Made by a program: the position numbers and the translations under genes. This document shows positions 31,470-62,177 of a stretch of 64,000 nt of DNA, one piece after another. The stretch spans positions 1,022,253 through 1,086,252 of the forward strand of contig JBGLNH010000001.1 of the NCBI GenBank assembly GCA_041320535.1, read 5' to 3'. The notes under the pieces were generated by a model, which searched no databases, had not been told where the DNA came from, and saw nothing but the letters and a program-made list of their open reading frames with translations. The stretch is from Candidatus Aminicenantes bacterium. Lineage in GTDB: Bacteria; Acidobacteriota; Aminicenantia; Aminicenantales; Saccharicenantaceae. Position 1 is the stretch's first letter. Each line of letters starts with the position of its first letter.

Positions 31470-31470
31470 G

Positions 31471-35148: not shown

Positions 35149-37122
35149 ATGCCCATGAGCCGTTTCGTCGTCCGGAAGGAGGTCTCGAGCCTGCCCCGCC
35201 TTCCCCTGCGCGGCACGCTCGATCTGACCTACCGCTGCGGCAACGACTGCCGCCACTGCTGGCTGAGGCTCGCTCCGGACGCCCCGGAGGCCGCCGCGGA
35301 GCTCACGCTCGACGAGATCCGCGGGATCGTCGACGGGGCCCGGGCCCTGGGCTGCCGCGAGTGGGCCCTCTCGGGCGGCGAGCCCCTGCTCCGGCCCGAT
35401 TTCCCGGAGATCTTCGAGGCGGTCACCGGGCGGTCGGCCTGGTACACCCTGAACACGAACGGCGGGCTGATCACGCCGCGGACCGCGGCCATGCTGCGGC
35501 GGAAGGGCGCCAAGCTCGTCGCCCTGTACGGCGCCACGGCCGCGGTCCACGACGCCGTCACCCGGAACCCCGGCTCCTTCGAGGCCCTCGTCCGGGGCGT
35601 CGCCTACCTCCGGGAGGCCGGGGCGGGCTTCACCGTCCAGGTCGTGCCCATGAGGACGAACATCGGCGAGTTCGAGGCCATGGTCCGGCTGGCCGAGTCT
35701 TGGAGCCCGAGCTGGAGGATCGGCGCGACGTGGCTGTATCTCTCCGCCTCCGGCGACCCCGTCAAGAACCGGGAGATCGCGGCCGAGCGGCTCGATCCGG
35801 CCCAGGTCGTGTCGCTCGACCGGGTCGCGGGCGGGGGCCCTGTCGAGCTCGGCGGGGACGGAGAGCCGTCTTGCGCCTCGGCCGCGCCGGGCGGCCTCTA
35901 CGCGGCCTGCCTGGCCGGACGGCGCGACTTTCACGTCGATCCCTACGGCGGGCTGAGCTTCTGCTCGTTCGTCAAGGACCCCGCGCTGCGCGTCGACCTG
36001 CGCCGGACCGGGCTCGCCGAGGCCTGGGAGGACCGGTTGCCGCGCCTCGCCGCGGCCGTCGCGCCGTCCGCGGGCTACGCCGGCGGCTGCGGCGCCTGCG
36101 AGCTCCGCTCCGACTGCAAGTGGTGCCCGGTCTACGCCTATCTCGAAACGCGCGACCACTCGTCGAGGATCGAGAGCCTCTGCGCCGTCGCCCGCGAGAC
36201 GCGCCGCGTCCGGGAGGACTGGCTCCTCTCCCACCGCCGGCGCTTCCGCCTCGCCGGGATCGCGGTCGACGTCGAGGCCGACCTGCCCATCGGAGAGGGC
36301 ACGTTCGCCCCCAAGTTCGGGCCCTTCCGGGCCCCCGTCGACGGCCCGGCCGCGATCGTCCTCCACCATCACTTCGCGCTCCCGGACCGGCTCGACGCCC
36401 GCTCCCTGGGCCGCGAGGTCCATCGCCGGCCTCCGTGGGCGGTCTACCGCAAGGGGGATTCCTGGATCTACGTGATGATCCCGCCCGACCCGGCGGACGG
36501 CACGGTCCACCGCGTCATGGTCTTCGACGACGGGCACACCCGCGGGCACATCTACAGCCCGTCGGAGGAGCTCTTCCGGCGGGGCGGGCACGACTCGCTG
36601 GCCCTGCTGCCGTCGGACCAGCTCATTTTGGCCCGGGCCCTCCCGGCCTTCGGCGGCGTCTTCGTCCACGCCTCGGCGGTGGACATGGACGGGCACGGGC
36701 TCCTCTTCGCGGGGGCCTCGGAGGCGGGCAAGTCGACGATCGTCAAGCTGATCGGGGAGCGGGCCAAGGTCCTCTGCGACGACCGCGTCGTCGTCCGCAG
36801 GCACGACGGCGGCTTCCGCGTCCACGGCACATGGAACCACGGAGAGGTCACCCGCGTCTCGCCGGGCTCGGCCCCGCTCAGGGCGGTGTTCTTCCTGAGG
36901 CAGGCGGCCGCCAACCGCGCCGACCGGGTCAGCGGGCCCCGGGCCATCCTGCGGGACTTCCTGCCCCGGATCGTCCGGCCGCTCGTCTCGGCCGATTGGT
37001 GGGAGCGGGCCCTCGGCCTGGCCGAGGAGATCGTCCGCGAGGTCCCGTTCTACGATCTGTCCTTCGACAAGAGCGGCGCCGTCGCCGGCGTCCTCGGGGA
37101 TCTCCTGGAGGCGCGGGAATGA
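35149..37122 (+). CDS. Radical SAM/SPASM enzyme fused to a C-terminal HprK-like P-loop kinase domain
   Basis: CGNDCRHC, GGEPLLR, SPASM CGACELRSDCKWCP; C-terminal HASAV, GASEAGKST (Walker A), CDDR. Confidence 0.85.
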   Translation: MPMSRFVVRKEVSSLPRLPLRGTLDLTYRCGNDCRHCWLRLAPDAPEAAAELTLDEIRGIVDGARALGCREWALSGGEPLLRPDFPEIFEAVTGRSAWYTLNTNGGLITPRTAAMLRRKGAKLVALYGATAAVHDAVTRNPGSFEALVRGVAYLREAGAGFTVQVVPMRTNIGEFEAMVRLAESWSPSWRIGATWLYLSASGDPVKNREIAAERLDPAQVVSLDRVAGGGPVELGGDGEPSCASAAPGGLYAACLAGRRDFHVDPYGGLSFCSFVKDPALRVDLRRTGLAEAWEDRLPRLAAAVAPSAGYAGGCGACELRSDCKWCPVYAYLETRDHSSRIESLCAVARETRRVREDWLLSHRRRFRLAGIAVDVEADLPIGEGTFAPKFGPFRAPVDGPAAIVLHHHFALPDRLDARSLGREVHRRPPWAVYRKGDSWIYVMIPPDPADGTVHRVMVFDDGHTRGHIYSPSEELFRRGGHDSLALLPSDQLILARALPAFGGVFVHASAVDMDGHGLLFAGASEAGKSTIVKLIGERAKVLCDDRVVVRRHDGGFRVHGTWNHGEVTRVSPGSAPLRAVFFLRQAAANRADRVSGPRAILRDFLPRIVRPLVSADWWERALGLAEEIVREVPFYDLSFDKSGAVAGVLGDLLEARE

Positions 37123-38300
37123 CCGCCGCGAGTAGGTCCTACGTGAGGAAGGTCCCCTCGGGCCGGGACGGCCTGTGGGCGTCCGGCGGCCCGCCGCTCA
37201 CGCGGCTCGACATCGAGCTCACCGAGCGCTGCGACAACGATTGCCTCCACTGCTCGGTCAACCTTCCGGCCGGAGACGCCGGGGCCCGGGCCCGGGAATG
37301 GACCGCCGGCCGGTGGAAGGCGCTCCTCGACGAGGCGGCGGCGCTCGGGGCGCTCGTCGTCCGGCTGACCGGCGGCGAGCCGCTCCTGCGCGACGATTTC
37401 GGGGAGATCTACCTCCACGCGAGGGGGCTCGGCCTGAGGGTGATGCTCTTCACCAACGCGACGCTCGTGACGCCGCCGCTGGCCCGGCTCCTCCGGGACG
37501 TGCCCCCGCTCGAAGCGGTCGAGGTCTCAGTCTACGGGCTGACCGAGGGGACGTACGAGGCCGTGACCCGGAGGCCCGGATCGTTCGCCGCGTTCCGGCG
37601 GGGGTTCGAGCTCCTCCGCGGCCATGGCGTCCCCCTCGTGGTCAAGGGGGCCGTGCTCCCTCCGACCCGTCACGAGATGGACGCCTTCGAAGCCTGGGCG
37701 GCCGGGCTCGGCGGGAGCTCCGCCCGGCCCTCCTTCGCCCAGCTCTTCGACCTGCGGTCGCGGCGGGACGGGGACAAGAACGCCCTCATCGCCGCGCTGA
37801 GGATCGGCGGAGACGAGTTCGTCGCCCTCGCCCGGCGTCACGGGGAGGCGGCCGTCGAGGAGTGGCGGGAGTACTGCGCCCGCGCTTGCGCCCCCCGCGG
37901 CGACCGGCTGTTCACCTGCCTGCCGGCGGGCGGTTCGGCCGCGATCGACCCGTACGGCCGTCTTCAGTACTGCCTGGGACTGCGCCATCCGGCGACGGTC
38001 CTCGATCTCGACGCCGCCTCGCTCCGGACGGCCGTCGCGGATTTCCTGCCGCGCGTCCGGGCCATGCGGGCCGCGGACCCGGCCTATCTCGAGCGCTGCG
38101 GCCGGTGTTTTCTCAAGGGGCTCTGCGAACAGTGCCCGGCGAAATCCTGGGCCGAGCACGGCACGCTGGACACGCCGGTCGAATATCTCTGCGGCCTCGC
38201 CCACGCCCAGGCGGCGGCCGCGGGAATGCTCCGTCCGGGGGAGAAGGCCTGGACCGTCGCCGACGGTGAGGAACGGGCGGGAAGAAAAGGAGCGCCATGA
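37119..38300 (+). CDS. Radical SAM/SPASM maturase 2
   Basis: CDNDCLHC, GGEPLLR, FTNATL, CGRCFLKGLCEQCP; ATGA overlaps with both neighbours. Confidence 0.88.
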   Translation: MTAASRSYVRKVPSGRDGLWASGGPPLTRLDIELTERCDNDCLHCSVNLPAGDAGARAREWTAGRWKALLDEAAALGALVVRLTGGEPLLRDDFGEIYLHARGLGLRVMLFTNATLVTPPLARLLRDVPPLEAVEVSVYGLTEGTYEAVTRRPGSFAAFRRGFELLRGHGVPLVVKGAVLPPTRHEMDAFEAWAAGLGGSSARPSFAQLFDLRSRRDGDKNALIAALRIGGDEFVALARRHGEAAVEEWREYCARACAPRGDRLFTCLPAGGSAAIDPYGRLQYCLGLRHPATVLDLDAASLRTAVADFLPRVRAMRAADPAYLERCGRCFLKGLCEQCPAKSWAEHGTLDTPVEYLCGLAHAQAAAAGMLRPGEKAWTVADGEERAGRKGAP

Positions 38301-38602
38301 CCGCGAAGATCGATCTCGGCAAGGTTTACGGCCCGTCCGACGACGTCGTCGTCCGGGAGATCGAGGGGGAGATCGTCATCGTCCCCCTGGCCTCGGGCAT
38401 CGGCGACCTGGAGGACGAGCTCTTCACGCTGAACGAGACGGGCCGGGACATCTGGGCCAAGGTCGACGGGACGCGGCCGCTTGGGGCAGTCATCCGCGAT
38501 CTCGTCGCCGATTACGAGGCCCCCGAAGGGCTGGTCGAGGAGGACGTCGAGGGTTTCCTCCAGGAGCTCCTCGACCGCGGGATGATCGTCGAGAGGGGCT
38601 GA
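38297..38602 (+). CDS. PqqD-family RiPP recognition element
   Basis: VVVREIEGEIVIVP, FTLNETGRDIW, DG, FLQELLDRGMI. Confidence 0.88.
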   Translation: MTAKIDLGKVYGPSDDVVVREIEGEIVIVPLASGIGDLEDELFTLNETGRDIWAKVDGTRPLGAVIRDLVADYEAPEGLVEEDVEGFLQELLDRGMIVERG

Positions 38603-38607
38603 CCGCG

Positions 38608-38886
38608 ATGGCCGATTCTCCCCGCCGCCCCGCCGCCGCCGGCGATCTCCCCCTTCCGGGAGAGGCCCTGGCCGGGCTGATGGCGGCGGTCCTCGGGAAG
38701 GGCCTGCCTTTCCGTTTCGAGGCCCGCGGGGAGAGCATGCACCCGGCCATACGGCACGGGGACGTCGTCACGGTCGCCCCGGTCGCCGGCCGCGCGCCCA
38801 GGGCGGGCGACGTCGTCGCCTTCATCCATCCCGGGACTGGCGGGGTCCGCGTCCATAGGATCTTGGCCCTCGAGCGGGGTTCCTAG
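38608..38886 (+). CDS. S24/S26-family peptidase (Ser-His), 3'-truncated at a junction
   Basis: RGESMHPAIRHGD, GDVVAF, VHRI; the expected GDN motif is missing. Confidence 0.75.
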   Translation: MADSPRRPAAAGDLPLPGEALAGLMAAVLGKGLPFRFEARGESMHPAIRHGDVVTVAPVAGRAPRAGDVVAFIHPGTGGVRVHRILALERGS

Positions 38887-39530
38887 TCGAAGACCGGGAC
38901 GGGACTGTCCTTATCCTTGATGAGGAGCGGGATCTCCGTACAGCCCAGGATGACGCCCTGGGCCCCGCGGCGCTTCAGCTCTTCGATGATCGCGACGTAC
39001 GTCCGCCGCGACTCGTCCCGGATCGTGCCGTGGGCGAGCTCAGTGTAGATGACGTCGTGAACGGCCGTCCGGCCCGGCTCCTCGGGGATGAGAACCTCGA
39101 GGCCGTGCTCCTTTTCGAGCCGTCCCCTGTAGAAATCGAGCTCCATGGTGTAGCGGGTCCCGAGCAGGGCGACCGTCGAGAGGCCGGCCTTCTTGATGGC
39201 CGCGGCGGTCGCGTCGGCGATATGAAGGAAGGGGATGCCGACCGCTGCCGTTATGTCGCCGGTCAGCCGGTGCATCTTGTTGGTGCAGAGGACGAGCCCC
39301 TCCGCGCCGGCCTTCTCGAGCGTCCGGGCCGCCCCGGCCATGAGGCGGCCCATGGCCTCCCAGTCGCCGCTCCCCTGCAACCGCTCGACCGGCTCGAAAT
39401 CGACCGAGAGCATGACGATCTCGGCCGAATGCGAGCCGCCCAAGCGCTCATGGACCCCCTCGTTGATGAGCCGGTAGTAGTCGACGGTCGAGTGCCAGGT
39501 CATGCCTCCGATGAGCCCCAGTGTCCGCAT
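38883..39530 (-). CDS. Aspartate/glutamate (amino-acid) racemase, last residues missing
   Basis: [29 protein letters not shown]; ends at PVFD, where TT..H normally follows. Confidence 0.88.
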
Positions 39531-39665
39531 GGTCTCCTCCCCTAGCCTGGATTATTCACGAGCTGAGGCGGCTGCATATGCGAGGCGTCAAAGGCGAAGC
39601 TGTACTCGGAGTACTGCGAGCCCTTTGCAACGAAGCAGATGCGGCCGGATCGGCTTGCCCGAAGG

Positions 39666-39732
39666 GTGAAAACGCCGGTTTTATTTTTTGGGTGCTGAAG
39701 GAGAAATGCGGCGTTTTCATGAACAGTCCAGG
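39666..39732. repeat. Dispersed inverted-repeat element family B, copy 1 (immediately after rho stop)
   Basis: Minus strand CCTGGAC...GAAAACGCCGC-N30-CGGCGTTTTCAC; same arms at 60730-60794. Confidence 0.7.
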
Positions 39733-41145
39733 CTACAGGCCCTTGGTCATGGCGTTGAGGAAGTCCTGGTTGGTCTTCGTCTTTCCGAGCTTGTCGATCA
39801 GGAGCTCGACGGCCTCGACCTCGTTCATCTGGCTGAGGACCTTGCGCAGGACCCAGATGCGGTTGAGGTCGGCCTCCTCGATGAGCAGCTCCTCCTTGCG
39901 GGTGCCGGAGCGGCTCATATCGATGGCCGGGAAGACGCGCTTGTCGACCAGCCGGCGGTCGAGGTTGATCTCCATGTTGCCGGTGCCCTTGAACTCCTCG
40001 AAGATGACCTCGTCCATGCGGCTCCCGGTGTCGACCAGGGCCGTGGCCAGGATGGTCAGCGAGCCGCCCTCCTCGATCTTGCGGGCCGAGCCGAAGAACT
40101 TCTTGGGCTTGTGCAGGGCGTTGGCGTCGATGCCGCCCGACAGGACCTTGCCCGAGGGCGGGACGATGGCGTTGTGGGCCCTGGCCAGCCGGGTGATCGA
40201 ATCCAGGAGGATGACGACGTCCCGCTTGATCTCGACCAGGCGCTTGGCCTTCTCCAGGACGATGTTGGCGACCTGGGCGTTGCGGGTCGGCGGCTCGTCG
40301 AAGGTCGAGGCGACGACCTCGCCGTTGACGCTGCGCTTGAAGTCCGTGACCTCCTCGGGCCGCTCGGCGATGAGCAGCACGATGAGGAAGATCTCGGGGT
40401 GGTTCTTCTCGATGGACTTGGCGATCGTCTTGAGGATGGTCGTCTTGCCGGCCCGCGGCGGCGAGACGATGAGGCCGCGCTGGCCCTTGCCGACGGGCGT
40501 CAGGAGCTCCATGACCCGGGCGTTCATGTTCTTGGGGTTGCCGTCCTGGAGCTTGATCATCTCGAACGGATAGAGGGGCGTCAGGGCCTCGAAATGGACG
40601 TTCCGGCGCATCTCGATGATGACGTCGGGGTGGAGGAAGTTGACGGCCTCGATCTTGATCAGGGCGAAGTACTTCTCGCCGTTCTTGGGAGCGCGGACGA
40701 CGCCCGAGATCGTGTCGCCCGTCCGCAGCTGGAACTTGCGGATCTGGGAGGGAGAGACGTAGATGTCGTCCTGGCTGGGCAGGTAGCTGAATTCCGGGGC
40801 GCGGAGGAAGCCGAACCCGTCCTCCAGGCACTCCAGGACGCCCTCCGAGAAGAGCAGGCCCTGCTTCTTGGCCTGGGCCTCCAGGATCTTGAAGACGAGG
40901 TGGTGCCGGCTCGAGCCTTCGATGTCGTCGTCGGCCAAGCCGACCGCCGAGGCGACGGCCTCGAGCCCGTCGTTGTCCTTGGCCTCGAGGTCGATGAGGT
41001 TGAACTCCCGGTTGACGGCGGCGGCCTCGGCGGCTTCCGCCCGCTCGGCCCGCTCGGCCCGCTCGGCGCGTTCAGCGCGCTCGGCGGCGGCCCGGTCGGA
41101 TCTGTCGGCCCTGTTGTTGTCGTTCCGTTTCACCATGTGTGGCAT
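39733..41145 (-). CDS. rho: Transcription termination factor Rho (alternative start 41136)
   Basis: [52 protein letters not shown]. Confidence 0.96.
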
Positions 41146-41199
41146 TCTCCCAAGAGGATTATTGGCGGTCTTACGCGGATACTGCGGTCGTTGCGGCTC

Positions 41200-43647
41200 T
41201 CAGTTGGTCAGGGGCGGCTCTTTGGCCGCTTCGTCCTCCGCCGGGCGGGCCGCCGGGCGCTCCGCTTCGGCCGCCTTCTTGTCGCGGCTCTCGACGAGCT
41301 TCTTCGGCAGCTCCCGGGTCAGCGCGATCTTCAGGACCTCTTCCATCGTCTCGACGAGGTGAATGGTCATGCCCGTTTTGAGGGCCTTGGGCAGGTCCTT
41401 CAGGTCGGGCTCGTTGTCGCGGGGCAGGACGGCCGCGCGGATGCCCTCGCGGTAGGCCGCCAGCAGCTTCTCCTTGATCCCCCCGACGGGCAGGACCTTG
41501 CCCTTCAGGGTGATCTCGCCGGACATGGCCACTTTCTTGCTGACGGGGATGTCGGTCAGGAGCGAGATGATGGCCGTGGCGATGGTGATGCCGGCCGACG
41601 GGCCTTCCTTGGGCGTCGAGCCCTCGGGCACGTGGATGTGGATGTCGGAATTGCGGTGGAGGTCCCGGGCGATGTCGAGCTCGTAGATCTTCCCGCGGAC
41701 GAAGGAGAAGGCCGCCTGGGCCGACTCCTGCATGATCTCGCCGAGCTGTCCGGTCAGGGTGAAGTTGCCCTTGCCGTGGATCTTGGTCGCCTCGAACCGC
41801 AGGAGCTCGCCGCCGAACTCGGTCCAGGCCATGCCCGTGCCGACGCCGACCTCGTCCTTCTTGTCGAACTCGGAGCGGCGGAACTTGGGGATGCCCAGGT
41901 AGCTCTCGAGGTTCTTGGGCGTGATCCGCTCCTTGTGGTCCTTGCCCTGCTCGACGACCCTCTTGACGACCTTGCGGCAGACCGTGGTGATCTCCCGTTC
42001 GAGGTTGCGGACGCCGGCCTCGCGGGTATAGCTGCGGACGAGCTTGAGGAGGGCCGGATCGGTGATCTTGATGTTCTCCTCGGTCAGGCCGTGGGCCCCC
42101 ATCTGCTTCGGCAGGAGAAAGCGCCTGGCGATCTCGAGCTTCTCGTCCTCGGTGTAGCCGGGGATGCGGATGATCTCCATCCGGTCGATGAGCGGCTTGG
42201 GGATGGGGTCGAGCATGTTGGCGGTGACGATGAACATGACCTGGGACAGGTCGAAATCGGTGTCGATGTAGTGGTCGAGGAAAGTGCTGTTCTGCTCCGG
42301 GTCGAGGACCTCCATGAGGGCCGAGGCGGGATCGCCCCGGAAGTCCATGCTCATCTTGTCGACCTCGTCGAGGAGGAAGACGGGGTTCTTGGTCCCGCCC
42401 CGCTTGATCATCTGGATGATGCGGCCCGGGTAGGCCCCGATGTAGGTCCGCCTGTGGCCGCGGATCTCGGCCTCGTCGCGGACGCCGCCGAGGGAGAGGC
42501 GGACGAACTTGCGGCCCGTCGCCCGGGCGATCGACTTGCCCAGGGAGCTCTTCCCGACGCCGGGCGGCCCGATGAGGCCGAGGATGACGCCCCGGGGGTT
42601 CTTGACCAGCTGGCGGATGGACAGGTACTCGAGGATGCGCTCCTTGACCTTCTCCAGGCCGTGGTGGTCTTCGTTGAGGATCCTATCGGCTTCCTTGAGC
42701 TCGCGCTTCTCCCGGGACTTCTTGATCCAGGGCAGCGAGATGAGCCAGTCCAGGTAGTTCCGGCTGACCGTGGCCTCGGCCGACATCGGCGGCATGGCCT
42801 CGAGCCGCTCGATCTCCTTGTAGGCCTTCTCCTCGGCGTCCGGGGCCATCTTGGCCTTGGCCACCTTCTGGCGGAGCTCCTCGATCTCGTTGGGCTGGTC
42901 GTCCTTGCGGCCGCCGGGCGCCCCGGGCGGGAAGTTCTTCTGTTGTCCGGGCTGGTCCTTGAGAGGCACCCGCCTCCGGGCCCGGTTGGGGTCCTTCTGG
43001 TAGGCGGAGTGGATCTTGAGGATCTCGTTCTCCAGGACGTAATTGAGCCGCCTCAGGCGCTCGAAGCTGTTGACCGTCTCGAGGAGGTTCTGCTTCTCCT
43101 CGAGCGGCATGTAGACGTGGGAGGCGACGATGTCCGTGATCCGGTCCGGGGTGTTCTCCCGGAGGGCGGGAATGATCGAATCGAGGTTGGTGTTCTGGTT
43201 GAGCTTGAGGTAGTCCTCGAACAGGGCCAGGACCCGCTTCAGAAGCTCCTTGGACTCGGGGACGTGGTCCTCGACCTCTTTGACCACCTTGGCCAGGATC
43301 TGGTAGTAGGGATAGGTGCTGAGATACTCGACGATCCGGGCCCGGCTCTTGCCCTCGACGATGACCTTCATGTTCCGGTCGTCGCTCTTGATCGTCCGGA
43401 TGATCTTGGCCGTCACGCCGACCGAATAGATGTCCTTGGGCGTGGGATTGTCGACCGAGGCGTCCATCTGGGCCGCTAGGAAGATCATCTTGTCCTTCTC
43501 GGCCGCCTTTTCGAGGGCCTGGATGGACGAGGACCGCCCGACGATGAACGGGACGAGGGTGGCCGGGAACACGACGAGGTCCCTCAGGGGGATGAGCGGG
43601 ATGTTCCTGAGGACCTCGCTGTGCTCGTGTGAATCCTGCATGATCAC
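41200..43647 (-). CDS. lon: ATP-dependent protease La
   Basis: [38 protein letters not shown] catalytic Ser, GGIKEK. Confidence 0.95.
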
Positions 43648-43770
43648 GCTCCGGGCCCGCCGGGGCCCCCGGTCGGTTCAGCCATGAGGCTCATGAAGCG
43701 TCGGGAACTGAGCCTTTTATCGTCGATCTGACGAGCCCATAAAGGGAGTCGCGGGAATCTAAAGCCTTGG

Positions 43771-45075: not shown

Positions 45076-45160
45076 TAGGCAGAGCGGGACTCGAACCCGC
45101 ACTCCTTCATCAGGAACTAGGTCCTAAGCCTAGCGCGTCTGCCAATTCCGCCATCTGCCC
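45076..45160 (-). tRNA. tRNA-Leu (anticodon TAG)
   Basis: GGGCAGA/TCTGCCT acceptor stem, D-loop TGGC, anticodon stem CTAGG-CT-TAG-GA-CCTAG, long variable arm, GGTTCGAGTCC; CCA not encoded. Confidence 0.95.
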
Positions 45161-52397: not shown

Positions 52398-54226
52398 TGG
52401 CCGAAGAGAGGATCTACGAGGACCTGACGCTCGTCGTCCGGCGGGCCCGGACGGTCTTCTGGGCCGTCGCCGCCCTGGTCCTGGTCGCGCTCGGCTATTA
52501 CTGGAAGGTCCAGGTCCTGGACCACGAGGAATACGCGCGCCTGGCCGCCGCCAACCGGACCCGCGAGCGCGTCCTGGCGGCCCCGCGCGGGCTCATCCGC
52601 GACCGGAACGGCGTGATCCTGGCCGACAACCGGGGCTCCTTCAAGGTGTCCCTCGTCCGCGAGAGCGTCACGGACGCGGACGCCTCCTTCGCCGCCGTCA
52701 GCCGGCTCCTCGGCCTCGACGAGGCCACCCTCCGGGCGCGCGTCGACCTGCACAAGGAGCTGCCGCTCTTCGCGCCCATCGTGGTGGCCGACGGCCTCGA
52801 CGCCACGGCCGTCGTCCCGATCGAGAGCCGCCGGCGCGAGTTCCCCGAGCTCGTCGTCGAAGCGGAGCCCCAGAGGTATTATCCGGGGGGCTCCCGGGCC
52901 GCCCACGTCCTCGGCTACCTCCAGGAGCTGACTCTCGAGGAGGTCCGGTCCGGCTCGCGGCGGCCGACGCGGGCGGGGGACATGGTCGGCCGGACCGGCG
53001 TCGAGCGCCAGTACGACGACATCCTGCGCGGCGACGACGGCTCGGTCGTCGAGGTGGTCGACAGCCTGGGCCGGGTCCGGGGCGAGCAGGCCCACGTCTA
53101 CCCGGAGCAGGGCCGCGAGATCAAGCTGGCCATCGACGGCGAACTCCAGGCCCTGGCCGAGCAGGCCCTCGAGGGCCGCGAGGGAGTGGTCGTCGCCCTC
53201 GACCCCCGCTCGGGAGATGTCCTGGCCCTGGCCAGCTCCCCGACGTTCGACCCGAACCGCTTCATCACCCGGTTCACGCCGGCCGAATGGAGCGCGCTGA
53301 CGACCGATCCCCAGTCGCCGCTCGAGAACCGGGCCATCCGCGGCCTCTACGCGCCCGGGTCCATCTTCAAGCTGGTCATGGGGCTCGGCGGACTGGATTT
53401 CCGGTTCGTCTCGGAGTCGACGACGGTCTACTGTTCCGGGTCGGCCCAGATCTACGGCGCCGTGCGCCACTGCTGGTTCGAGCCGGGACACGGCGCCATG
53501 GACCTCGTCGACGCGATCAAGAACTCCTGCAACATCTACTTCTACCAGCTCGGCCGGCGGATGAGCATCGGCATGATCGCCCTGGCCGCGGAAAAGTTGG
53601 GGCTCGGCGCCAAGACCGGCATCGACCTCGCCGGCGAGAAGGAGGGGCTCGTCCCGACCGCGGAATGGAAGCAGCGGACGACCAAGACGCCATGGTATCC
53701 GGGCGAGACGATCTCGATCGCCATCGGCCAGGGCCAGCTCCAGGTGACCCCGATGCAGATCGCCGTCATGACGGCCCGGATCGCCCGAAGGAGCGAGTCC
53801 GTGCCCGCCCCGCGCCTCCTCCTCCCGCGGACCGGGGGCCAGGAGGACGCGGGAGCCGTCGAGGCGCGGGACGCCGGGCCCGCCTCGGTCCGCTTCAGGA
53901 GGGAGAGCTTCGAGAGGATCGTCGCCGGCATGTGGAAGTCGGCCAACGACGGCGGCACGGGACAGGGCGCCCGGGTCGAGGGCTTCGACGTTTGCGGCAA
54001 GACGGGATCGACGCAGGTCATGAGCCGCGAGAGCGCCGAGCGCCTGGCCCGGGAAGGGCGCGAGGTCAAGACCCACTCCTGGTTCTCCGGGTTCGCCCCC
54101 CGCGACGACCCGCGCATCGTCGTCACCGTCCTCGTCGAGTACGGCGGCGGGGGAGGGGCCACGGCGGCGCCCGTGGCCGGCCGGATCTTCGCCCGGTTCA
54201 AGGAGCTCCGGGAGGCCCGGAGATGA
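52397..54226 (+). CDS. mrdA: Penicillin-binding protein 2
   Basis: APRG.I.DRNG, GSIFK (SxxK), SCN (SxN), GKTGS. Confidence 0.93.
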   Translation: MAEERIYEDLTLVVRRARTVFWAVAALVLVALGYYWKVQVLDHEEYARLAAANRTRERVLAAPRGLIRDRNGVILADNRGSFKVSLVRESVTDADASFAAVSRLLGLDEATLRARVDLHKELPLFAPIVVADGLDATAVVPIESRRREFPELVVEAEPQRYYPGGSRAAHVLGYLQELTLEEVRSGSRRPTRAGDMVGRTGVERQYDDILRGDDGSVVEVVDSLGRVRGEQAHVYPEQGREIKLAIDGELQALAEQALEGREGVVVALDPRSGDVLALASSPTFDPNRFITRFTPAEWSALTTDPQSPLENRAIRGLYAPGSIFKLVMGLGGLDFRFVSESTTVYCSGSAQIYGAVRHCWFEPGHGAMDLVDAIKNSCNIYFYQLGRRMSIGMIALAAEKLGLGAKTGIDLAGEKEGLVPTAEWKQRTTKTPWYPGETISIAIGQGQLQVTPMQIAVMTARIARRSESVPAPRLLLPRTGGQEDAGAVEARDAGPASVRFRRESFERIVAGMWKSANDGGTGQGARVEGFDVCGKTGSTQVMSRESAERLAREGREVKTHSWFSGFAPRDDPRIVVTVLVEYGGGGGATAAPVAGRIFARFKELREARR

Positions 54227-54486
54227 TGATCGACCGGCGCCTCCTTCAGGAGATCGATTGGGTCCTCATCGGCCTGGTCCTTCTGCAGGCGCTCATCGGC
54301 GTCTTCTTCATCTACAGCTCGTCGCACTTCCTGGCCGGCCAGTACCACGTCCGGCAGCTCGTCTGGATCGCCGTCTCGCTCGCCGCCCTCGTGTTCGTCC
54401 TGATCGTCGACTACAAGTTCTTCGTCTCGCTCTCGGTCTATTTCTACGGCCTGATCGTGGCCGTCCTCGCGGCGACGCTCGTCTTG
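54223..54486 (+). CDS. rodA: RodA, N-terminal fragment (junction)
   Basis: IDWVLI..GVFFIYSS..RQLVW..DYK; follows mrdA. Confidence 0.78.
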
Positions 54487-54561
54487 GCCCAGCGCGACGA
54501 GCGCGACCGCGGCGGCGAGACCGGCGAGCCTCGCGGGCGCCGACGCTTTCTGTCCGCTCAT
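54487..54561 (-). CDS. Signal-peptide start of an unidentified gene, cut at a junction
   Basis: MSGQKASAPARLAGLAAAVALVAL begins 4 nt after the recJ stop. Confidence 0.45.
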
Positions 54562-54565
54562 TCTC

Positions 54566-56257
54566 TCAGGTCTTCAGGTCCTCGACGGTCAGGCTGGTCC
54601 TCGTTTCCCCGAGGTATTCGGAGCGGGCGATGGAGAAGGCCAGGCTGACCCGGCCGCCCCGCCGCATGACGTGGCGCCAATCGCCCTTGTCCCAGCCGAG
54701 CGCCTCGAGGACGCGGCCGCCCTGCCGGGCCAGGAACTTGAGGTGCTTCCCCTGCAGGACCCGCGGCTCGTTGACGACCTCGACGTCGTCGGCGGCGAAG
54801 AGCGGCTTGGGGTTCCCGACGCCGAAGGGCAGGAGCGCCTCGAGGCCCTCGAGGAACCGGTCGTCGATCGCGGAGAAGTCGAGGGGCGCGTCGATCCGGA
54901 TCTTGCGCTTCAGGCTGTCCTCGGAGATGCGCGCCTCGGCCAGCGGGTTCAGGGCCTCCTTGAGCGCGGCCACGCGTTCCGTCGGCAGGGTGCAGCCGAC
55001 GGCCAGCTTGTGGCCGCCGTAGCTCGAGAACAGGTGCCGGCAATCCTCGAGCAGGTCGATGAGGGGGACGTCGGAGATGCTCCTCCCCGAGCCGTGGGCC
55101 TTGCCGTCCTCGTAGGCGAACAGGACGACGGGCCGGTGGAAGCGGTCCTTGAGCTTGGAGGCGACGATGCCGATGACGCCGCGGTGCCAGCCGGGCGAGC
55201 CCAGGACGAGGCACTTGTACTTGCGGTCGAGCTGCCGGCCCTCGACCCGCTCACAGGCCTCGTTGAAGATGCGCTCCTCGGTCTTCTGCCGCTGGGCGTT
55301 GAGCTCGTCGAGCTTCTGGACGAGGGCCTGCGCCTCGGCGGCGTCCTCGGAGAAGAAGAGCCGGACGGCGAGGTCGGTCATGCCCATGCGGCCGGCGGCG
55401 TTGATCCGCGGCCCGAGGCGGAAGCCGAGGTCGCCCTCGGAGATCTTGCGGTGGCCGAGACCGCAGGCCTCGATCAGGCTCCGCAGCCCCGTGTTGGAGA
55501 CGTTGCGCAGGCCTTTCAGGCCGTGCTTGACGAACAGGCGGTTCTCGCCTTTGAGCTCGGCGACGTCGGCCACGGTCCCGATCGAGACGAGCTTCATGTA
55601 GTGCGGCAGGCCCGCGTCCCGTCCGGCCTTCTGGAGCAGGGCCTGGACGAGCTTGAAGGTCACCCCGACCCCGGCCAGCCCCCGGTCCGGGTAGCCCGCG
55701 TCGTCGAGGACCGGGTCGAGGACGGCCACGGCGTCGGGCAGGACGTCCCCGGGCCTGTGGTGGTCGGTGACGATGACATCGACGCCGAGCTCCCGGGCCC
55801 GGGCGGTGAATTCGACGGCCTTGACGCCGCAGTCGACGCTGATGACGAGGGTCGCGCCCCGCTCGACGGGGATGCGGACGTGCTCGTCCTTGATGCCGTA
55901 GCCGTCGGTCAGGCGCTCCGGGATGAAATACTCGGCCTTGGCGCCGAGGGTCGTCAGGGCCTTGATCAGCATGACCGTCGAGAGGACGCCGTCGACGTCG
56001 TAGTCGCCGAAGACGAGGATCTTCTCTCCGCTGTCGATCGCGGCCCGGATACGGTCGACGGCCCGGGCCATGCCCTTCATCAGGTAAGGGTCGTGGAGGC
56101 CTTCGAGTCCGCCGTAGAGGAAGGCCCGGGCGTCCTCCGCCGTCAGGATCTTGCGGTTGACGAGGACCCTGGCGATGGCCGGAGGGAGGGACAGGGCCTC
56201 GGCGAGCTCGTCGGCCTCGGGACGCGGCGGGCTGATGACCCACTGGGCGGACTTCAT
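54566..56257 (-). CDS. recJ: ssDNA-specific exonuclease RecJ
   Basis: GDYDVDG, DGYG, VDCG, TDHH, GTVADV, PRINAAGR, GSGRS, GGH, PFGVGNPKP. Confidence 0.96.
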   Translation of the reverse strand: MKSAQWVISPPRPEADELAEALSLPPAIARVLVNRKILTAEDARAFLYGGLEGLHDPYLMKGMARAVDRIRAAIDSGEKILVFGDYDVDGVLSTVMLIKALTTLGAKAEYFIPERLTDGYGIKDEHVRIPVERGATLVISVDCGVKAVEFTARARELGVDVIVTDHHRPGDVLPDAVAVLDPVLDDAGYPDRGLAGVGVTFKLVQALLQKAGRDAGLPHYMKLVSIGTVADVAELKGENRLFVKHGLKGLRNVSNTGLRSLIEACGLGHRKISEGDLGFRLGPRINAAGRMGMTDLAVRLFFSEDAAEAQALVQKLDELNAQRQKTEERIFNEACERVEGRQLDRKYKCLVLGSPGWHRGVIGIVASKLKDRFHRPVVLFAYEDGKAHGSGRSISDVPLIDLLEDCRHLFSSYGGHKLAVGCTLPTERVAALKEALNPLAEARISEDSLKRKIRIDAPLDFSAIDDRFLEGLEALLPFGVGNPKPLFAADDVEVVNEPRVLQGKHLKFLARQGGRVLEALGWDKGDWRHVMRRGGRVSLAFSIARSEYLGETRTSLTVEDLKT

Positions 56258-56304
56258 CGTGGCCTCACTCTAGCATATCGGGGGGCCGGGCTCAACCGCC
56301 GCCA

Positions 56305-56333
56305 TTGACAATTAAACGCTTGAAAAATAAAAT
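56305..56333 (+). promoter_or_regulatory. Near-consensus sigma70 promoter of the ftsY-rib operon
   Basis: TTGACA-N17-TAAAAT, 9 nt upstream of GTG 56343. Confidence 0.75.
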
Positions 56334-56342
56334 GTTAAGACT

Positions 56343-57245
56343 GTGTTCGTCCAGCTCCGCGAAAAACTGGCCCGGACCCGCGGCGCTTTCCGCGCCGTCG
56401 AGGACATCTTCCGCAGCGGCCGGCGGCGCGACGAGATCCTCGACCGGCTCGAGGAGGCCCTCATCCTGGCCGACGTCGGCGTCACGGCCTCGGGACTGGT
56501 CCTCGAGGCCCTGCGCTCCGGCACGCGCAAGGACGCCGGCGAGCCCGAGCTCCGCCGGGCCCTCCGGGCCGAGCTCGAGCGCCTCCTCGCGAAGTCCGAC
56601 GGAGCCCGGCCGCCGGGCCCTTTCGCCGGCGCCTCGCCGGCGGTCGTCCTGATGGTCGGGGCCAACGGCGGCGGCAAGACGACCTCGGCGGCCAAGCTCG
56701 CCGCCCGTCTCAAGGGCCAGGGCCGGAAGGTCGTGCTGGCCGCGGCCGACACGTTCCGCGCGGCGGCCCAGGAACAGCTGGCGCTCTGGGGGAAGAAGCT
56801 CGGCGTGGCGGTCTTCAAGGGCGCCTACGGGGCCGACCCCGCCTCCGTCGTCTTCGACGCCGCGCGGTCGTTCAAGGCCCAGAAGGCGGACGTGCTCGTC
56901 GTCGACACCGCCGGGCGCGTCCACACCGACGCCAATCTCATGAACGAGCTCGAGAAGGTCCGCCGCGTCGCCGTCCGCGAGCTGCCCGAAGCGCGCCTCG
57001 AATCGCTGCTCGTCCTCGACGCCACGGTCGGCCAGAACGCCGTCGTCCAGGCCCGGGAGTTCCTCAAGTTCTCCGGCCTCACGGGGATCGTCCTGACCAA
57101 GATCGACGGGACGGCCAAGGGCGGGGCCGCCCTGGCCGTCGCCGCCGAGCTCGACCTGCCCATCCGTTTCCTCGGCGTCGGCGAGTCGGAGGAGGACCTG
57201 GTGGAGTTCTCGCCCCCCGAATTCGTGGAGGCCCTGCTCGCATGA
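56343..57245 (+). CDS. ftsY: SRP receptor FtsY (NG-only)
   Basis: ADVG, GKTT, DTFRAAA, DTAGR, TKIDGTAKGG, GVGE. Confidence 0.94.
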   Translation: MFVQLREKLARTRGAFRAVEDIFRSGRRRDEILDRLEEALILADVGVTASGLVLEALRSGTRKDAGEPELRRALRAELERLLAKSDGARPPGPFAGASPAVVLMVGANGGGKTTSAAKLAARLKGQGRKVVLAAADTFRAAAQEQLALWGKKLGVAVFKGAYGADPASVVFDAARSFKAQKADVLVVDTAGRVHTDANLMNELEKVRRVAVRELPEARLESLLVLDATVGQNAVVQAREFLKFSGLTGIVLTKIDGTAKGGAALAVAAELDLPIRFLGVGESEEDLVEFSPPEFVEALLA

Positions 57246-58342
57246 GCGGCCGGAGCGACCGCGCCTGGATGGAGATGGCCTACGGCCTCGCGGAGAGGGC
57301 CCGCGGCCGCACCAGCCCCAATCCCCTCGTCGGCGCGGTCGTCGTGCGCGACGGCGCCGTCGTCGGGTCCGGCTTCCACGCGGAGCCCGGCAAGGCCCAC
57401 GCCGAGATCCTGGCGCTCGCCGCGGCCGGCCGGAAAGCGCGCGGCGCGACGCTCTACCTGACCCTCGAGCCCTGCGTCCACTGGGGCCGGACCCCGCCTT
57501 GCGCCGACAACGTCCTGGCCGCCGGCCTGGCGCGGGTCGTCGTCTCGGCCCTCGACCCCAACCCGCTCGTCTCCGGCCGCGGCGTCCGCCGGCTCCGCCG
57601 GTCCGGGCTCGCCGTCGCCGTCGGGCCGCTGGCCGGGCGGAACGCGGTCCTGAACGAGTCCTACCTCAAGTACATCACCAGCAAGCGCCCCTTCGTCACG
57701 ATCAAAGCCGCCCTGAGCCTCGACGGCAAGATCGCCTGCCGGACCGGGGACTCGCGGTGGATCTCCTCGGCCGGGACGCGGGACTACGTCCACCTCCTCC
57801 GCGGCGAGCAGGACGCGCTGATGGTCGGCGCCGGGACCCTCATCGCCGACGATCCCCGGCTGACCGTCCGCCATCCGGCCTGGGGCCCGAAAAAGGCGCT
57901 CCGGGCGGTCCTCGACTCCCGCCTGCGCTTTCCGCTCGGCGCGCGGATCCTGAGCACGCTCGCGAGGGGCCCGGTCGTCGTCTTCGCCGGCCGCGCGGCC
58001 CCCCCCGCGAAGGCCCGCGCGCTCGGCCGGCGCGGCGTCGAGGTCCTCTTCCCGCCCGGCGGACGGGAGGATTGGCCCCTCGACCTCGTCCTCTCGGAGC
58101 TCGGCCGGCGCGAGGTGGCCGCGCTGCTCGTCGAGGGCGGCGGCCGCCTGTACACGTCCTTCGTCGAGTCCGGGCTGGCCGACAAAGCGGTCCTGACCGT
58201 CGCTCCGCGGCTCGTCGGCGGCGCTTCGGCCCCGGGCCTCCTCGGCGGAGCGGGCGCGGCGAGGATGGCGGCGGCCCTGGCCCTCCGGCGGGTGCGCGCC
58301 TTCACGGTCGAGGACGACATCATCCTGGAAGGATATTTCTGA
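57242..58342 (+). CDS. ribD: Riboflavin biosynthesis deaminase/reductase
   Basis: [33 protein letters not shown]. Confidence 0.95.
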
Positions 58343-58938
58343 TGTTCACGGGCATCATCTCGCACCGCGGGACGTTCCGCGGCTACAGGAACGGCCGCCG
58401 GGCCCTGCTCGTCGAGGCGGCCGGGCTGGCCTCGAAGCTCGCCGTCGGCGGGAGCCTGGCCGTCGACGGCGTCTGCCTGAGCGTCGTCGCCGCGGACCGC
58501 GGCGAGGTCCTCTTCGACCTCTCGCGCGAGACCGCCGAACGGACGACGCTCGGCGGCCTCGAGCCGGGGGCCCCGCTCAACCTGGAGCTGCCGCTGACCC
58601 CGTCCTCGCCGATCGGCGGGCACATGGTCAGCGGCCACGTCGACGGCGTGGGGCGGGTCCTCAAGGCCTCCTCCCGCCCGCCCGGCAAGCGCCTCACCGT
58701 CTCCTTCCCGGCCGCGCTCAGGCCGTTCCTCATCCCCAAGGGCTCGGTCGCGGTCGCCGGGGTCTCCCTGACCCTCGCCTCGCTCGGCCCGTCCTCGTTC
58801 GACGTCGAGCTCATCCCCCTGACGCTCGAGGGCACGAACCTCGGACGCCTCAGGACCGGGGCCAAGGTCAACCTCGAGTGTGACATGGTCGGGAAATACG
58901 TGTATAATTACCTGTCCCAAGGACGCACCAAGGGCTGA
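58342..58938 (+). CDS. ribE: Riboflavin synthase
   Basis: [43 protein letters not shown]. Confidence 0.93.
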
Positions 58939-58969
58939 GAGAGGCCCCGAGAAAGGCCCGCGCGATCCC

Positions 58970-60187
58970 ATGACCGAAGAGAAGACGACCGTTCCCGTCG
59001 AGACCGCCCTCGAGGCCGTCCGCGCCGGGCGGATGATCATCATCGTCGACGACGAGGACCGCGAGAACGAGGGCGATCTCATGGTGGCCGCCGAGAAGAC
59101 CACGCCAGAGATCGTCAACTTCATGGCCCGCCACGGCCGCGGCCTGATCTGCCTGCCCCTGACCCGGGAGCGGCTGGAGGAGCTCCAGCTGCCCCTGATG
59201 GTCAGCGAGAACACGGCCCGCTTCCAGACGGCCTTCACCGTCTCCATCGACGCCCGCGAAGGCGTCACCACCGGCATCTCGGCCCAGGACCGGGCCCGGA
59301 CGGTGCTCGCGGCCGTCGATCCGGCGACGAAGCCGGAAGACCTGGCCCGGCCGGGCCACGTCTTCCCGCTCCAGGCCAAGGAGGGCGGCGTCCTGGCCCG
59401 CGCCGGCCAGACCGAGGCCGCCGTGGACCTGGCCCGCATGGCCGGGCTCCGGCCGGCCGGCGTCATCTGCGAGGTCATGAACGAGGACGGGACGATGGCC
59501 CGCCGGCCCCAGCTCGAGGAGGCCGGGCGCCGGTTCGGCATCCCCATCCTGACCATCGCCGACCTCATCCGCTACCGCATGAAGACGGAGACCCTCGTCC
59601 GCGAGCTCGACGAGACCGATCTGCCGACCTCGCGGGGGCGGTTCCGCCTCCACGTCTACGAGGACATCATCCGCGGCGAGCACCACGTCGCCCTGGTCAA
59701 GGGCGAGGTCGGCGACGGCGCGCCGACGCTCGTCCGGGCCCACTCGCAGTGCCTGACGGGCGACACCTTCGGCTCGGCCCGCTGCGACTGCGGCGACCAG
59801 CTGCGGCTGTCCATGGAGATGATCGAGAAGGAGGGCCGGGGCGTCATCCTCTACATCCTCAACCACGAGGGGCGCGGCATCGGCCTGGCCAACAAGATCA
59901 AGGCCTACGCCATCCAGGACGACGGGGCCGACACCGTCGAGGCCAACCGCCGCCTGGGCTTCAAGCCCGACCAGCGCGACTACGGCATCGGCGCGCAGAT
60001 CCTCGTGGCCCTCGGCGTCCGCCGCCTCCGGCTCATCACCAACAATCCCCGCAAGTTCGTCGGGCTGACGGGCTACGGCCTGGAGATCGTCGAGCGCGTC
60101 CCGCTCGAGGTCGCGCCCAACGCCTGCAACCTGCGGTATCTCAAGACCAAGAAAGAGAAGATGGGCCACATCCTGGACCTGGTCTGA
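58970..60187 (+). CDS. ribBA: Bifunctional DHBP synthase / GTP cyclohydrolase II
   Basis: [46 protein letters not shown]. Confidence 0.95.
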
Positions 60188-60189
60188 GG

Positions 60190-60705
60190 ATGGACGTTCC
60201 GCGCGCCCCCGAAGGATCGAGCCCCTCCCCCATCTGCGCCGCCTTCCTCCTCAAGCTCGGCCGGACGCAGGACAAGACGAAGCGGCAGCGCATCCTGGCG
60301 GCCTGCGTCAAGGTCCGCCGCCCGTGGGCCGAGGAGCTCCTGTGGGAGGCGCTGGCCGATCCCAACGAGGCCGTCCGGTCCTTCGTCGCCCGGGAGCTGC
60401 GCGACCGCCCGGCCATCCGCCTCGACCTGGCCCTGAGGAGGCTCCGCCTCCCGCCGTGGTGGGCCAGGAGCTCGGTCCTGAAGATCGTCGGCCGCCGCCG
60501 CGTCAGGGAAGCCCTCTCCGAGGTCGCCCGGGCGGCCGGCGACGTCAACGTCGACGTCCGCCGCTCCGCGGCCGAAGCGCTGGGCGAGATCGGCGGGGAA
60601 GAGGCGGTCCGGGCCCTCGTCCGCCTGAAGAAGGACGCCAACCCTTACGTGCGGGCGGCGGCCGAAGAGGCGATCGAAAAGACGAGCCGGGTCCGTTTCA
60701 GCTGA
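60190..60705 (+). CDS. Small HEAT-repeat protein
   Basis: DPNEAVR, DVNVDVRRSAAEALG, DANPYVRAAA. Confidence 0.75.
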   Translation: MDVPRAPEGSSPSPICAAFLLKLGRTQDKTKRQRILAACVKVRRPWAEELLWEALADPNEAVRSFVARELRDRPAIRLDLALRRLRLPPWWARSSVLKIVGRRRVREALSEVARAAGDVNVDVRRSAAEALGEIGGEEAVRALVRLKKDANPYVRAAAEEAIEKTSRVRFS

Positions 60706-60729
60706 GGCCCCGGGGCCGGCGCGCCTCAG

Positions 60730-60794
60730 CCTGGACCTGGCACGAAAACGCCGCTCTTGGTCTTCCTGTTGACGGAGAACTACGGCGTTTTCAC
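60730..60794. repeat. Family B inverted-repeat element, copy 2 (possible bidirectional terminator)
   Basis: CCTGGAC...GAAAACGCCGC-N28-CGGCGTTTTCAC between the convergent HEAT and precursor genes. Confidence 0.7.
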
Positions 60795-60806
60795 GAATGG
60801 CTCAGG

Positions 60807-60989
60807 TCAGCTGGCGTAGCGGGTGTCCGAGCAAGCCTGGCAACAGGCGGGATTCGAGGTGCAGTTGTCCTTGTGGTTGTAGGGCGCCACGGGCGGGGCC
60901 GTCTTGTGCTTGCAATGGCACAAGAGCGTCTCCTCCGGACGCCCCTTGAAGAGGACGATGAGCTCGGGCGTCTGCCATTGTTTCTTCAT
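60807..60989 (-). CDS. Putative RiPP precursor peptide (60 aa, six Cys)
   Basis: GGAGG SD, own promoter, leader MKKQWQTPEL (W/YxxPxL), Cys-rich core, adjacent to an rSAM/SPASM gene. Confidence 0.82.
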   Translation of the reverse strand: MKKQWQTPELIVLFKGRPEETLLCHCKHKTAPPVAPYNHKDNCTSNPACCQACSDTRYAS

Positions 60990-61024
60990 GGCCTTGGATC
61001 CTCCAAAAATGCTTCCTTTAGAGT

Positions 61025-61053
61025 ATGTTAGGCCGGAATCCCGGCAAAGTCAA
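61025..61053 (-). promoter_or_regulatory. sigma70-like promoter of the precursor
   Basis: TTGACT-N17-TAACAT; the -35 box overlaps the rSAM stop codon. Confidence 0.6.
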
Positions 61054-62177
61054 CCGGATTTTAAGCCCTCCGCCCGGGCCTCGGCGACCCGGCAGAAGGA
61101 TTCGACGGGGGAATCGAGGGAGCCCGTCTCGAGATAGGCGTGGGCCGGGCACCAGAGGCACAGGTTGACGAGGGGGCACTTCCCGCACTTGTCCAGGTAT
61201 TCCCTGCGGTCCGAGGTCCGGGACAGGACATCCGGCAGGAACCCGGTCCAGGCCTCGGCCAGGGGGCCCTTCCTCAGGTCGAAGAGGAAGTCCGGATGGT
61301 GGAGGGACAAGCACGGCCTCAGGTGGCCCTCCGGTCCGACCACGAAGCTCCTCTGGCCGACGCCGCAGCGGAAGATGTGGCGGCACTCGGGGGCGCAGCC
61401 GTCGGGCGCCCCTTCGGCCGGAAGGAGGTCGCCGCAGGCGGCCTGGAGGGCGCCGAAGCGCTGCGGGTCGGCCCTCTCCAGCCGGGCCACTTCCCGGCCG
61501 CTCAGCCGCTCGGCCTTGATGAGCGTGTTCTTGGCCTCGTCGCGGTCGAAGCGGAGATGGAGCTGGGGATCGAAGCGGTAGTAGTCCTTGGTCCGGGCGC
61601 GGCAGAAGTCGGCGATCGCCGGGATCTCGTGCTTGTTGGAGCGCAGGGCCATGGCCTTGAGCCGGACGGGCAGCCCGCCGGCCAGGAGGCGGTCGAGGCC
61701 GGTCCTGAACGCGTCGAACGAGCCGGGCGTTCTGGTCACCCGCTCGTAGGTCTCGCGGGTCACCCCGTAGACCGTCACCTCGATCTCCCGGGGCGGGAAC
61801 TTCTTGAGGAACCGGACGTGCTCGGCCTTGACCAGCGTCGCGTTGGTGAATACGGACAGGAGCAGCCCTTTCCCGAGCAGGGCCGTGTAGAGCTCGAAGA
61901 AATCCTTCCTCAGCAGAGGCTCGCCGCCGGTGATCAGGCACCAGACCGCGCCGAGGGCCGCGGCCTCCCCGCCGATCCGCCCGATCTCCTCGGCGGTGAG
62001 CTCGCGCTTGCGGGCGGACCGGTCCCCCGCCGGGAGGTTGACGTAGCAGTGGCGGCAATCGAGGTTGCAGCGCGCCGTCGCCTCGAGGTCGAAGCTGAAC
62101 ACGGCCCGGCCGGCGGCCATCTTGTCCCAGAGCCGGAATTCGGGGAGCGGCCGGCGGACGACGAACTCCTTGGTCAC
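61050..62177 (-). CDS. Radical SAM/SPASM maturase 3
   Basis: CNLDCRHC, GGEPLLR, FTNATL, CGKCPLVNLCLWCP; GTG start in a GTGA overlap with a cut-off upstream gene. Confidence 0.88.
   Translation of the reverse strand: MTKEFVVRRPLPEFRLWDKMAAGRAVFSFDLEATARCNLDCRHCYVNLPAGDRSARKRELTAEEIGRIGGEAAALGAVWCLITGGEPLLRKDFFELYTALLGKGLLLSVFTNATLVKAEHVRFLKKFPPREIEVTVYGVTRETYERVTRTPGSFDAFRTGLDRLLAGGLPVRLKAMALRSNKHEIPAIADFCRARTKDYYRFDPQLHLRFDRDEAKNTLIKAERLSGREVARLERADPQRFGALQAACGDLLPAEGAPDGCAPECRHIFRCGVGQRSFVVGPEGHLRPCLSLHHPDFLFDLRKGPLAEAWTGFLPDVLSRTSDRREYLDKCGKCPLVNLCLWCPAHAYLETGSLDSPVESFCRVAEARAEGLKSG

Follow-up and report, generated by a model that had tools for sequence, protein, structure and literature searches.

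The subject of this analysis is a gene cluster for a peptide synthesised by ribosomes and modified post-translationally (RiPP) in a 64,000-nucleotide (nt) stretch of DNA, hereafter the window, from a Candidatus Aminicenantes bacterium (GCA_041320535.1, contig JBGLNH010000001.1). The cluster is found in the window as two fragments, and it is practically certain that these belong to one contiguous cluster. It encodes three radical S-adenosylmethionine (rSAM)/SPASM maturases, the first of which is fused to a ScmC-type HPr-kinase-like domain, a PqqD-family peptide chaperone, an S24/S26-type peptidase and a 60-residue Cys-rich precursor that ends in Ser. The best reading of these parts, taken from the sequences, is that the product would be a RiPP with several crosslinks and a phosphate on its C-terminal Ser.

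Two fragments and the junction between them

A preliminary description of the window proposed that the two RiPP fragments form one three-rSAM cluster. This is the arrangement seen in two sibling assemblies, GCA_041304285.1 (L001) and GCA_041304065.1 (L002), in which the fragments are contiguous and the predicted gene order is unbroken: rSAM-ScmC (657 aa), rSAM (393), PqqD (101), S24 peptidase (165), rSAM (375) and a 60-aa open reading frame (ORF). The sibling DNA is 99.3-99.9% identical to the window (blastn). Positions 3897-11771 of L001 align to window 31015-38888, and positions 11931-13417 align, reversed, to window 62227-60744. The flanks of the sibling clusters match both window contigs, with holA, rpsT, murJ and dtd to one side of the cluster, and to the other a HEAT-repeat gene, ribBA, ribE, ribD, ftsY and recJ. 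An exact-sequence look-up found the rSAM2 protein on four public contigs, and the same look-up with rSAM3 gave zero matches. A third sibling contig (L003) stops at exactly the same base as the window segment (38885).

The operon is cut inside the peptidase gene by an assembly break, and the contigs were then set side by side in the window. As had been described, the plus-strand segment ends within the peptidase at 38885, where the ORF at 38608-38885 (+) holds the first 92 of 165 residues. The 3′ fragment of the same gene, comprising the last ~17 codons and the TGA, is located at 62174-62227 (−) by alignment to L001 11931-11987. The start of rSAM3 was said to overlap the stop of a missing gene, and that gene is the peptidase: the GTG at 62177 shares GTGA with the peptidase TGA. 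Compared with L001, the segment missing between the contig ends amounts to 159 nt of 79% GC, wholly within the peptidase gene. The earlier suggestion that the gap might hold a nucleotidyltransferase or an ABC exporter is thus rejected for this genome, and neither gene turns up in the window as a whole or, in L001, within 8 kb. The suggestion does hold for the family, in which such accessory genes occur in about a quarter of loci.

The window as a whole (G+C ~69%, zero Ns) is a chain of contigs of a metagenome-assembled genome (MAG) from an Aminicenantes bacterium, placed end to end. Contig junctions without Ns lie at about 31015-31025, where the match to the sibling contigs begins, at 38885/38886 and at about 62227/62228, and there may be others elsewhere in the window. 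At 38885 both flanking genes are truncated, namely the peptidase (+) and a convergent Asp/Glu racemase that covers only profile positions 1-215 of 230. The same applies at about 62227 to the 3′ end of the peptidase (−) and to an RlmI methyltransferase (+), which is without its first ~180 residues (profile 183-392 of 396). Features at contig ends in the window need to be read across these junctions.

That the fragments represent two separate loci, merely placed near each other, might be supposed from their position 23 kb apart on opposite strands with unrelated genes between them, but this is exceedingly improbable and already refuted as far as public assemblies allow, given that the cluster is contiguous and unchanged in its order in both sibling assemblies and at 17 further loci of Aminicenantes-type species, that the sibling flanks match both contigs and that genes are truncated on both sides of 38885 and 62227. 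The order foreseen in the preliminary description recurs with the same parts in dozens of related genomes, so the association of these parts is not due to chance.

The precursor and the kinase-like domain

The precursor gene is an ORF at 60807-60989 (−), separated from the rSAM3 gene upstream by a 60-nt spacer that contains a GGAGGA ribosome-binding site. The peptide of 60 residues (MKKQWQTPELIVLFKGRPEETLLCHCKHKTAPPVAPYNHKDNCTSNPACCQACSDTRYAS) consists of a leader, MKKQWQTPELIVLFKGRPEETLL, and a Cys-rich core, CHCKHKTAPPVAPYNHKDNCTSNPACCQACSDTRYAS. It ends ...CSDTRYAS, with Ser60 as the last residue, which bears out the ...RYAS terminus reported earlier. Directly after the stop codon, an inverted repeat read from the sequence (GAAAACGCCG ... 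CGGCGTTTTC, 60744-60792, −) is likely to act as a transcription stop or a stabilising hairpin.

Conservation of the terminal Ser had been named as a check on its candidacy as a phosphorylation site. In a protein search, 13 close homologues of the precursor were found, and all ten of the full-length ones end in Ser. More distant relatives were sought by scanning one genome per GTDB species with an alignment of the kinase domain with 26 homologues. This gave at least 445 stretches, the best 80 loci of which were analysed and yielded 79 distinct precursors, up to ~11 from a single locus (L027). A terminal Ser or Thr is present in 78 of these 79, across about 20 lineages (Ser 73, Thr 5, Leu 1), counts that are not independent given that the precursors are related, though their cores differ widely in other respects. 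Of all residues in the precursors, 14.6% are Ser or Thr. The lone Leu-ending peptide sits in a degraded locus (L059) with fragmented cluster genes.

The family leader follows the pattern KKxWxKPxLxVLxRGxPEExVL and leads to an invariant Cys-Lys; the core can be written as C-K-x14-17-C-x5-8-C-x2-3-C-x5-6-[S/T]-COOH. Four Cys positions are conserved family-wide and six Cys are found in the window's clade. In 72 of 80 peptides (the 79 and the window's own), the terminal residue follows the last Cys at a distance of 5 or 6 residues.

The enzyme considered to act on this residue is the C-terminal half of the first maturase. The rSAM1-ScmC fusion of 657 aa is encoded at 35149-37122 (+), with residues 1-360 forming the radical SAM/SPASM part and residues 361-657 (DNA 36229-37119) the ScmC-type HPr-kinase-like part. 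Where both are adjacent, the fusion is in frame and free of stops in 61 of 64 loci. Pfam Hpr_kinase_C matches residues 506-554. PF27840 (ScmC) is a precomputed match on the fusion and on all 120 homologues listed, and was not returned by our own Pfam scan. The nearest NCBIfam model is ScmC (TIGR04249; 57.8 bits against a cut-off of 125, profile positions 123-219 only), followed by HprK-related kinase B (HprK_rel_B, 28.8 bits against 200) and HprK.

The catalytic core of Lactobacillus casei HprK/P (1jb1) aligns with residues 506-554, which keep its His (VHAS), P-loop (GASEAGKST) and Asp-Asp pair (CDDR). Among 27 homologues, 39-68% identical to the window domain, His507, the P-loop at 522-530, Asp544/545 and Arg546 are invariant or nearly so (H147, G162-T170, D184/185 and R186 in domain numbering). 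A PDB sequence search with the kinase domain gave a marginal match to HprK (E 0.2). The AlphaFold2 model has a mean pLDDT of 91 and a pTM of 0.87, and its best PDB matches by Foldseek are the ATP-dependent phosphoenolpyruvate carboxykinases (PEPCK; E 5e-7) and HprK/P (E 2e-6). As modelled, the domain is a PEPCK/HprK P-loop phosphotransferase fold. A profile search of 1.84 billion cluster representatives (50%-identity clusters) returned 465 at E <= 1e-30, which include both 650-aa fusions and 300-aa free-standing forms. Every kinase-domain homologue with any source name is called a ‘hypothetical protein’.

The proposed pathway and its alternatives

The other two maturases are rSAM2 (37119-38300, +; 393 aa), the start of which overlaps the stop of the fusion gene, and rSAM3 (61050-62177, −; 375 aa), which has a GTG start. 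Pfam Radical_SAM scores are 70 bits for rSAM1, 72.5 for rSAM2 and 73 for rSAM3. The three proteins are paralogues, 35-41% identical, and share the motifs listed in the preliminary description: RCxxxCxHC, GGEPLLRxDF, CGxCxLxxxCxxCP and an [LF]C at the end. They also have in common seven aligned C-terminal Cys, arranged in a SPASM-like manner. The Pfam SPASM model is matched weakly and in rSAM3 only (19.3 bits, cut-off 21.5). The closest solved enzymes in a PDB sequence search are PqqE, SkfB, BlsE and MoaA (E 1e-7 to 1e-11). Enzymes of the rSAM/SPASM type can link the sulfur of Cys to carbons of other residues.

The PqqD-family protein, a RiPP recognition element (RRE) of 101 aa, is encoded at 38297-38602 (+) and scores 57 bits with Pfam PqqD, for which the cut-off is 23.4. 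The peptidase fragment that follows it matches Pfam Peptidase_S24 (profile positions 38-84 of 158) and the archaeal-type signal peptidase I of NCBIfam, the best match there being TIGR02228 at 39.5 bits, under the cut-off of 51.85. The full-length enzyme of L001 contains GESMHP (Ser43), VHRI (His83) and KGDN (Asp98), which is the Ser/His/Asp pattern of the ER/archaeal-type (S26B-like) signal peptidases. Ser43 and His83 are carried by the window fragment and Asp98 falls in the missing 159 nt. Across homologues, Ser43 is kept in 57 of 57, His83 in 67 of 70 and Asp98 in 65 of 70. The enzyme is taken to be a soluble leader peptidase, as no obvious hydrophobic anchor is present in the 165-aa sequence.

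In the proposed pathway, the free-standing PqqD protein would bind the precursor by its leader, KKxWxxPxLxVL...PEExxL, and the three SPASM enzymes would then crosslink the Cys-rich core, most probably through thioethers derived from Cys. The ScmC domain, judged by the families involved, would phosphorylate Ser60. The signal-peptidase-like enzyme, with its Ser/His/Asp residues, would remove the leader, probably near the invariant Cys-Lys. C-terminal phosphorylation is a strong prediction because the precursor almost always ends in Ser beside a conserved HPr-kinase-like enzyme, and phosphorylation of the terminal Ser by ScmC is considered probable.

Several points weigh against this reading. The sequence similarity to HprK and HprK-related kinases does not extend beyond a stretch of ~50-70 residues around the P-loop, which weakens the assignment of both substrate and phosphate donor. 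The fixed Cys-x5/6-Ser spacing fits a crosslink or a recognition role of the terminal residue equally well. The matches of the maturases to PqqE, SkfB, BlsE and MoaA are only remote. The window's clade is without a nucleotidyltransferase or exporter near the cluster. A literature search, with subscription journals outside its coverage, found no published description of the family.

One alternative holds that ScmC serves rSAM1 as a docking or regulatory domain that depends on nucleotide, and that the terminal Ser is kept because it accepts an rSAM crosslink or is recognised by the peptidase or in export. The prevalence of the fusion, the strict spacing to the last Cys and the sulfur-to-carbon chemistry of rSAM/SPASM enzymes would all suit such a role. 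However, the catalytic His of HprK, the P-loop Lys/Ser, the Asp-Asp pair and the Arg are all invariant, which is unusual for a pseudo-enzyme. The free-standing 300-aa forms of ScmC are also common, and a minimal system at L059 keeps the kinase and the terminal Ser with one rSAM only. This alternative is considered unlikely.

The other possibility is that phosphorylation is transient. Here the terminal Ser or Thr would be activated for β-elimination to a dehydro residue, followed by attack of a Cys to give a lanthionine-like ring or by hydrolysis to a C-terminal amide. The logic of a kinase step followed by elimination is established for class III/IV lanthipeptides. In keeping with it, Ser and Thr, the two eliminable residues, are the only ones tolerated at the precursor end, and a Cys stands at a fixed distance of 5-6 residues from it. 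Against it, the conserved gene set contains no lyase or cyclase domain, and about a quarter of the relatives carry NTP_transf_5, which in the lasso system acts on a phosphate that persists (PMC8498205). Transient phosphorylation appears more doubtful still than a docking role, and lasting phosphorylation of the terminal Ser is preferred to both.

The family and its relation to known systems

The relatives were found in Aminicenantes, Acidobacteriota, Omnitrophota, Dehalococcoidia and other Chloroflexota, Desulfobacterota and Myxococcales, and in Planctomycetia, NC10, WOR-3, Poribacteria, Margulisiibacteriota, Actinomycetota and three methanogen lineages. Almost all members are uncultivated anaerobes, for example those of the Aminicenantes, Omnitrophota, Dehalococcoidia, Desulfobacterota and methanogens. 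Nearly all of the best 80 loci carry rSAM1-ScmC, rSAM2, PqqD, the peptidase and rSAM3 together with 1 to ~11 precursors. Components were counted by searching six-frame translations with the window proteins at the 38 loci that have 6 kb or more on either side. rSAM2, rSAM3 and PqqD are present at all 38, rSAM1 at 37, the precursor at 35 and the peptidase at 33. Clustering of the neighbouring ORFs of the 80 loci identified as accessory genes an NTP_transf_5 nucleotidyltransferase (Pfam, 133 bits) and a fused ABC exporter, each in 23-24 of the 80 and outside the window's clade. The lasso genes for the macrolactam synthetase C and the protease B2 are absent from the window cluster, from L001 and from the conserved set of the 80 loci.

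In the Aminicenantes-type loci (L005-L023), as in the window flanks at 31471-35000 and 54500-60705, the cluster always lies between murJ-dtd and the HEAT-repeat gene with the riboflavin operon. No exporter is found near the cluster in L005-L023. The Aminicenantes cluster has the look of a vertically inherited set of genes in a housekeeping position, not of a mobile antibiotic island.

A repeat element ~185 nt long, intergenic and with copies 84-91% identical, occurs at window 39537-39723, L001 13364-13550, L002 9468-9654, L023 4458-4640 and L006 14263-14329. The sibling assemblies have it as an insertion directly behind the precursor gene, flanked by an 80-nt direct duplication that takes in the last precursor codons and the hairpin; the window's copy of the cluster is without the insertion. 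The fold of the repeat has a z-score of −2.2. Rfam gave no match in the cluster or in the repeat, and the sole match at the gathering threshold in the window is a tRNA gene at 45076-45160 (−).

Gene content varies among the more distant members. In a Dehalococcoidia MAG (L027, 10980-18600), the enzyme genes of a single cluster are interspersed with ~11 divergent precursor genes, which form a natural library of cores. The leader is common to all of these precursors, and the C-x5-[S/T] end is present in all but one truncated copy. The minimal variant, in a Chloroflexia MAG (L059, 2129-4662), consists of PqqD, one rSAM (361 aa), a 63-aa precursor and a free-standing ScmC-like kinase of 243 aa. 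Its precursor keeps the leader, the CK dipeptide and the C-x5-S-COOH end (...CVQTQRS). A degraded full-size cluster is located 5 kb from this variant.

The SynChlorMet (SCM) cassette, defined by ScmC (TIGR04249), ScmD (TIGR04248), ScmE (TIGR04250) and ScmF (TIGR04251), is a bioinformatic family with no known product. Like the window cluster, it groups an HprK-like ScmC, a PqqD-type chaperone, SPASM rSAMs and an S24/S26-type peptidase around a Cys-rich precursor. Unlike SCM, which has two rSAMs, the window has three rSAM paralogues, a kinase fused to rSAM1 and a shorter precursor of a different family. Membership of the cassette was rejected, with all four equivalog cut-offs failed: in addition to the ScmC score given above, PqqD reaches 23 bits with ScmD (cut-off 100), rSAM1 85 bits with ScmF, and rSAM2 and rSAM3 71 and 76 bits with ScmE (cut-off 400 for each). 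For this reason the window system is regarded as a sister family of SynChlorMet. In NCBIfam as a whole, the window proteins pass no model.

A near-true SynChlorMet cassette adjoins a family member in L048 (2409-7474), with scores of 396 bits for ScmE and 346 for ScmF (cut-offs 400). It contains two ScmD-like PqqD proteins, a short ScmC-like kinase of 197 aa and an S26-like peptidase, and its 89-aa Cys-rich precursor ends ...FVIQS, which is also a Ser. Just upstream, at 2119-2350, is a short tandem repeat with MFHVPRS / GTWNVER-like units in several frames.

In lasso peptide pathways, the linear precursor receives a phosphate on its C-terminal Ser from an HPr-kinase homologue, and a nucleotidyltransferase decorates that phosphate, adding hexoses in the case of pseudomycoidin (PMC8498205). 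Compared by description, the window system resembles those of PadeK, ThcoK, SyanK and the pseudomycoidin kinase in its HprK-fold P-loop kinase and PqqD-type RRE, in the xxPxLxxL motif of the precursor leader and in the C-terminal Ser; relatives of the window cluster also pair the kinase with NTP_transf_5 and an ABC exporter (PMC8498205). The differences are that the window cluster is without a lasso cyclase or B2 protease, that its kinase is fused to an rSAM and resembles the lasso kinases in sequence in the P-loop region only, and that its macrocycles would come from the rSAMs.

The sactipeptide and ranthipeptide rSAM-SPASM pathways (AlbA, SkfB, PapB, CteB) and PqqE/PqqD share with the window the CX3CX2C and SPASM-like Cys, an RRE and a Cys-rich core. 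Unlike these pathways, the window has three paralogous maturases, one discrete RRE, a kinase domain and a signal-peptidase-like leader peptidase. Similarity of the window rSAMs to sactipeptide/ranthipeptide-type families is remote, and no family cut-off is reached. The system is a hybrid-like combination of the rSAM/SPASM crosslinked RiPPs and lasso-type kinase tailoring, and belongs to neither family.

Phosphorylation is rare among RiPPs. A 2025 survey of the phosphorylated ones covers microcin C, two lasso peptides, phospeptin, one lanthipeptide and the cyanobactins, none of which is made by radical SAM enzymes (PMC12639078). The window cluster belongs to a widespread uncharacterised family with a sharp chemical prediction, and three testable hypotheses follow from the family: a C-terminal phospho-Ser, a division of labour among the rSAM paralogues and a soluble signal-peptidase-like leader peptidase. 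Genome mining may pick out members by their leader, KKxWxxPxLxVL...PEExVLxxCK, and by a core with C-x5-6-[S/T]-COOH at its end.

More tentatively, the family may constitute a new RiPP class that spans phyla and takes in both bacteria and methanogenic archaea, one in which rSAM crosslinking would be obligatorily coupled to C-terminal Ser phosphorylation by a maturase-fused HprK-like domain, with the phosphate decorated by a nucleotidyltransferase in some lineages. Owing to the fixed housekeeping position of the cluster and the lack of an exporter, the product in Aminicenantes could perhaps be intracellular, as a cofactor-like or metal/redox peptide rather than an antibiotic.

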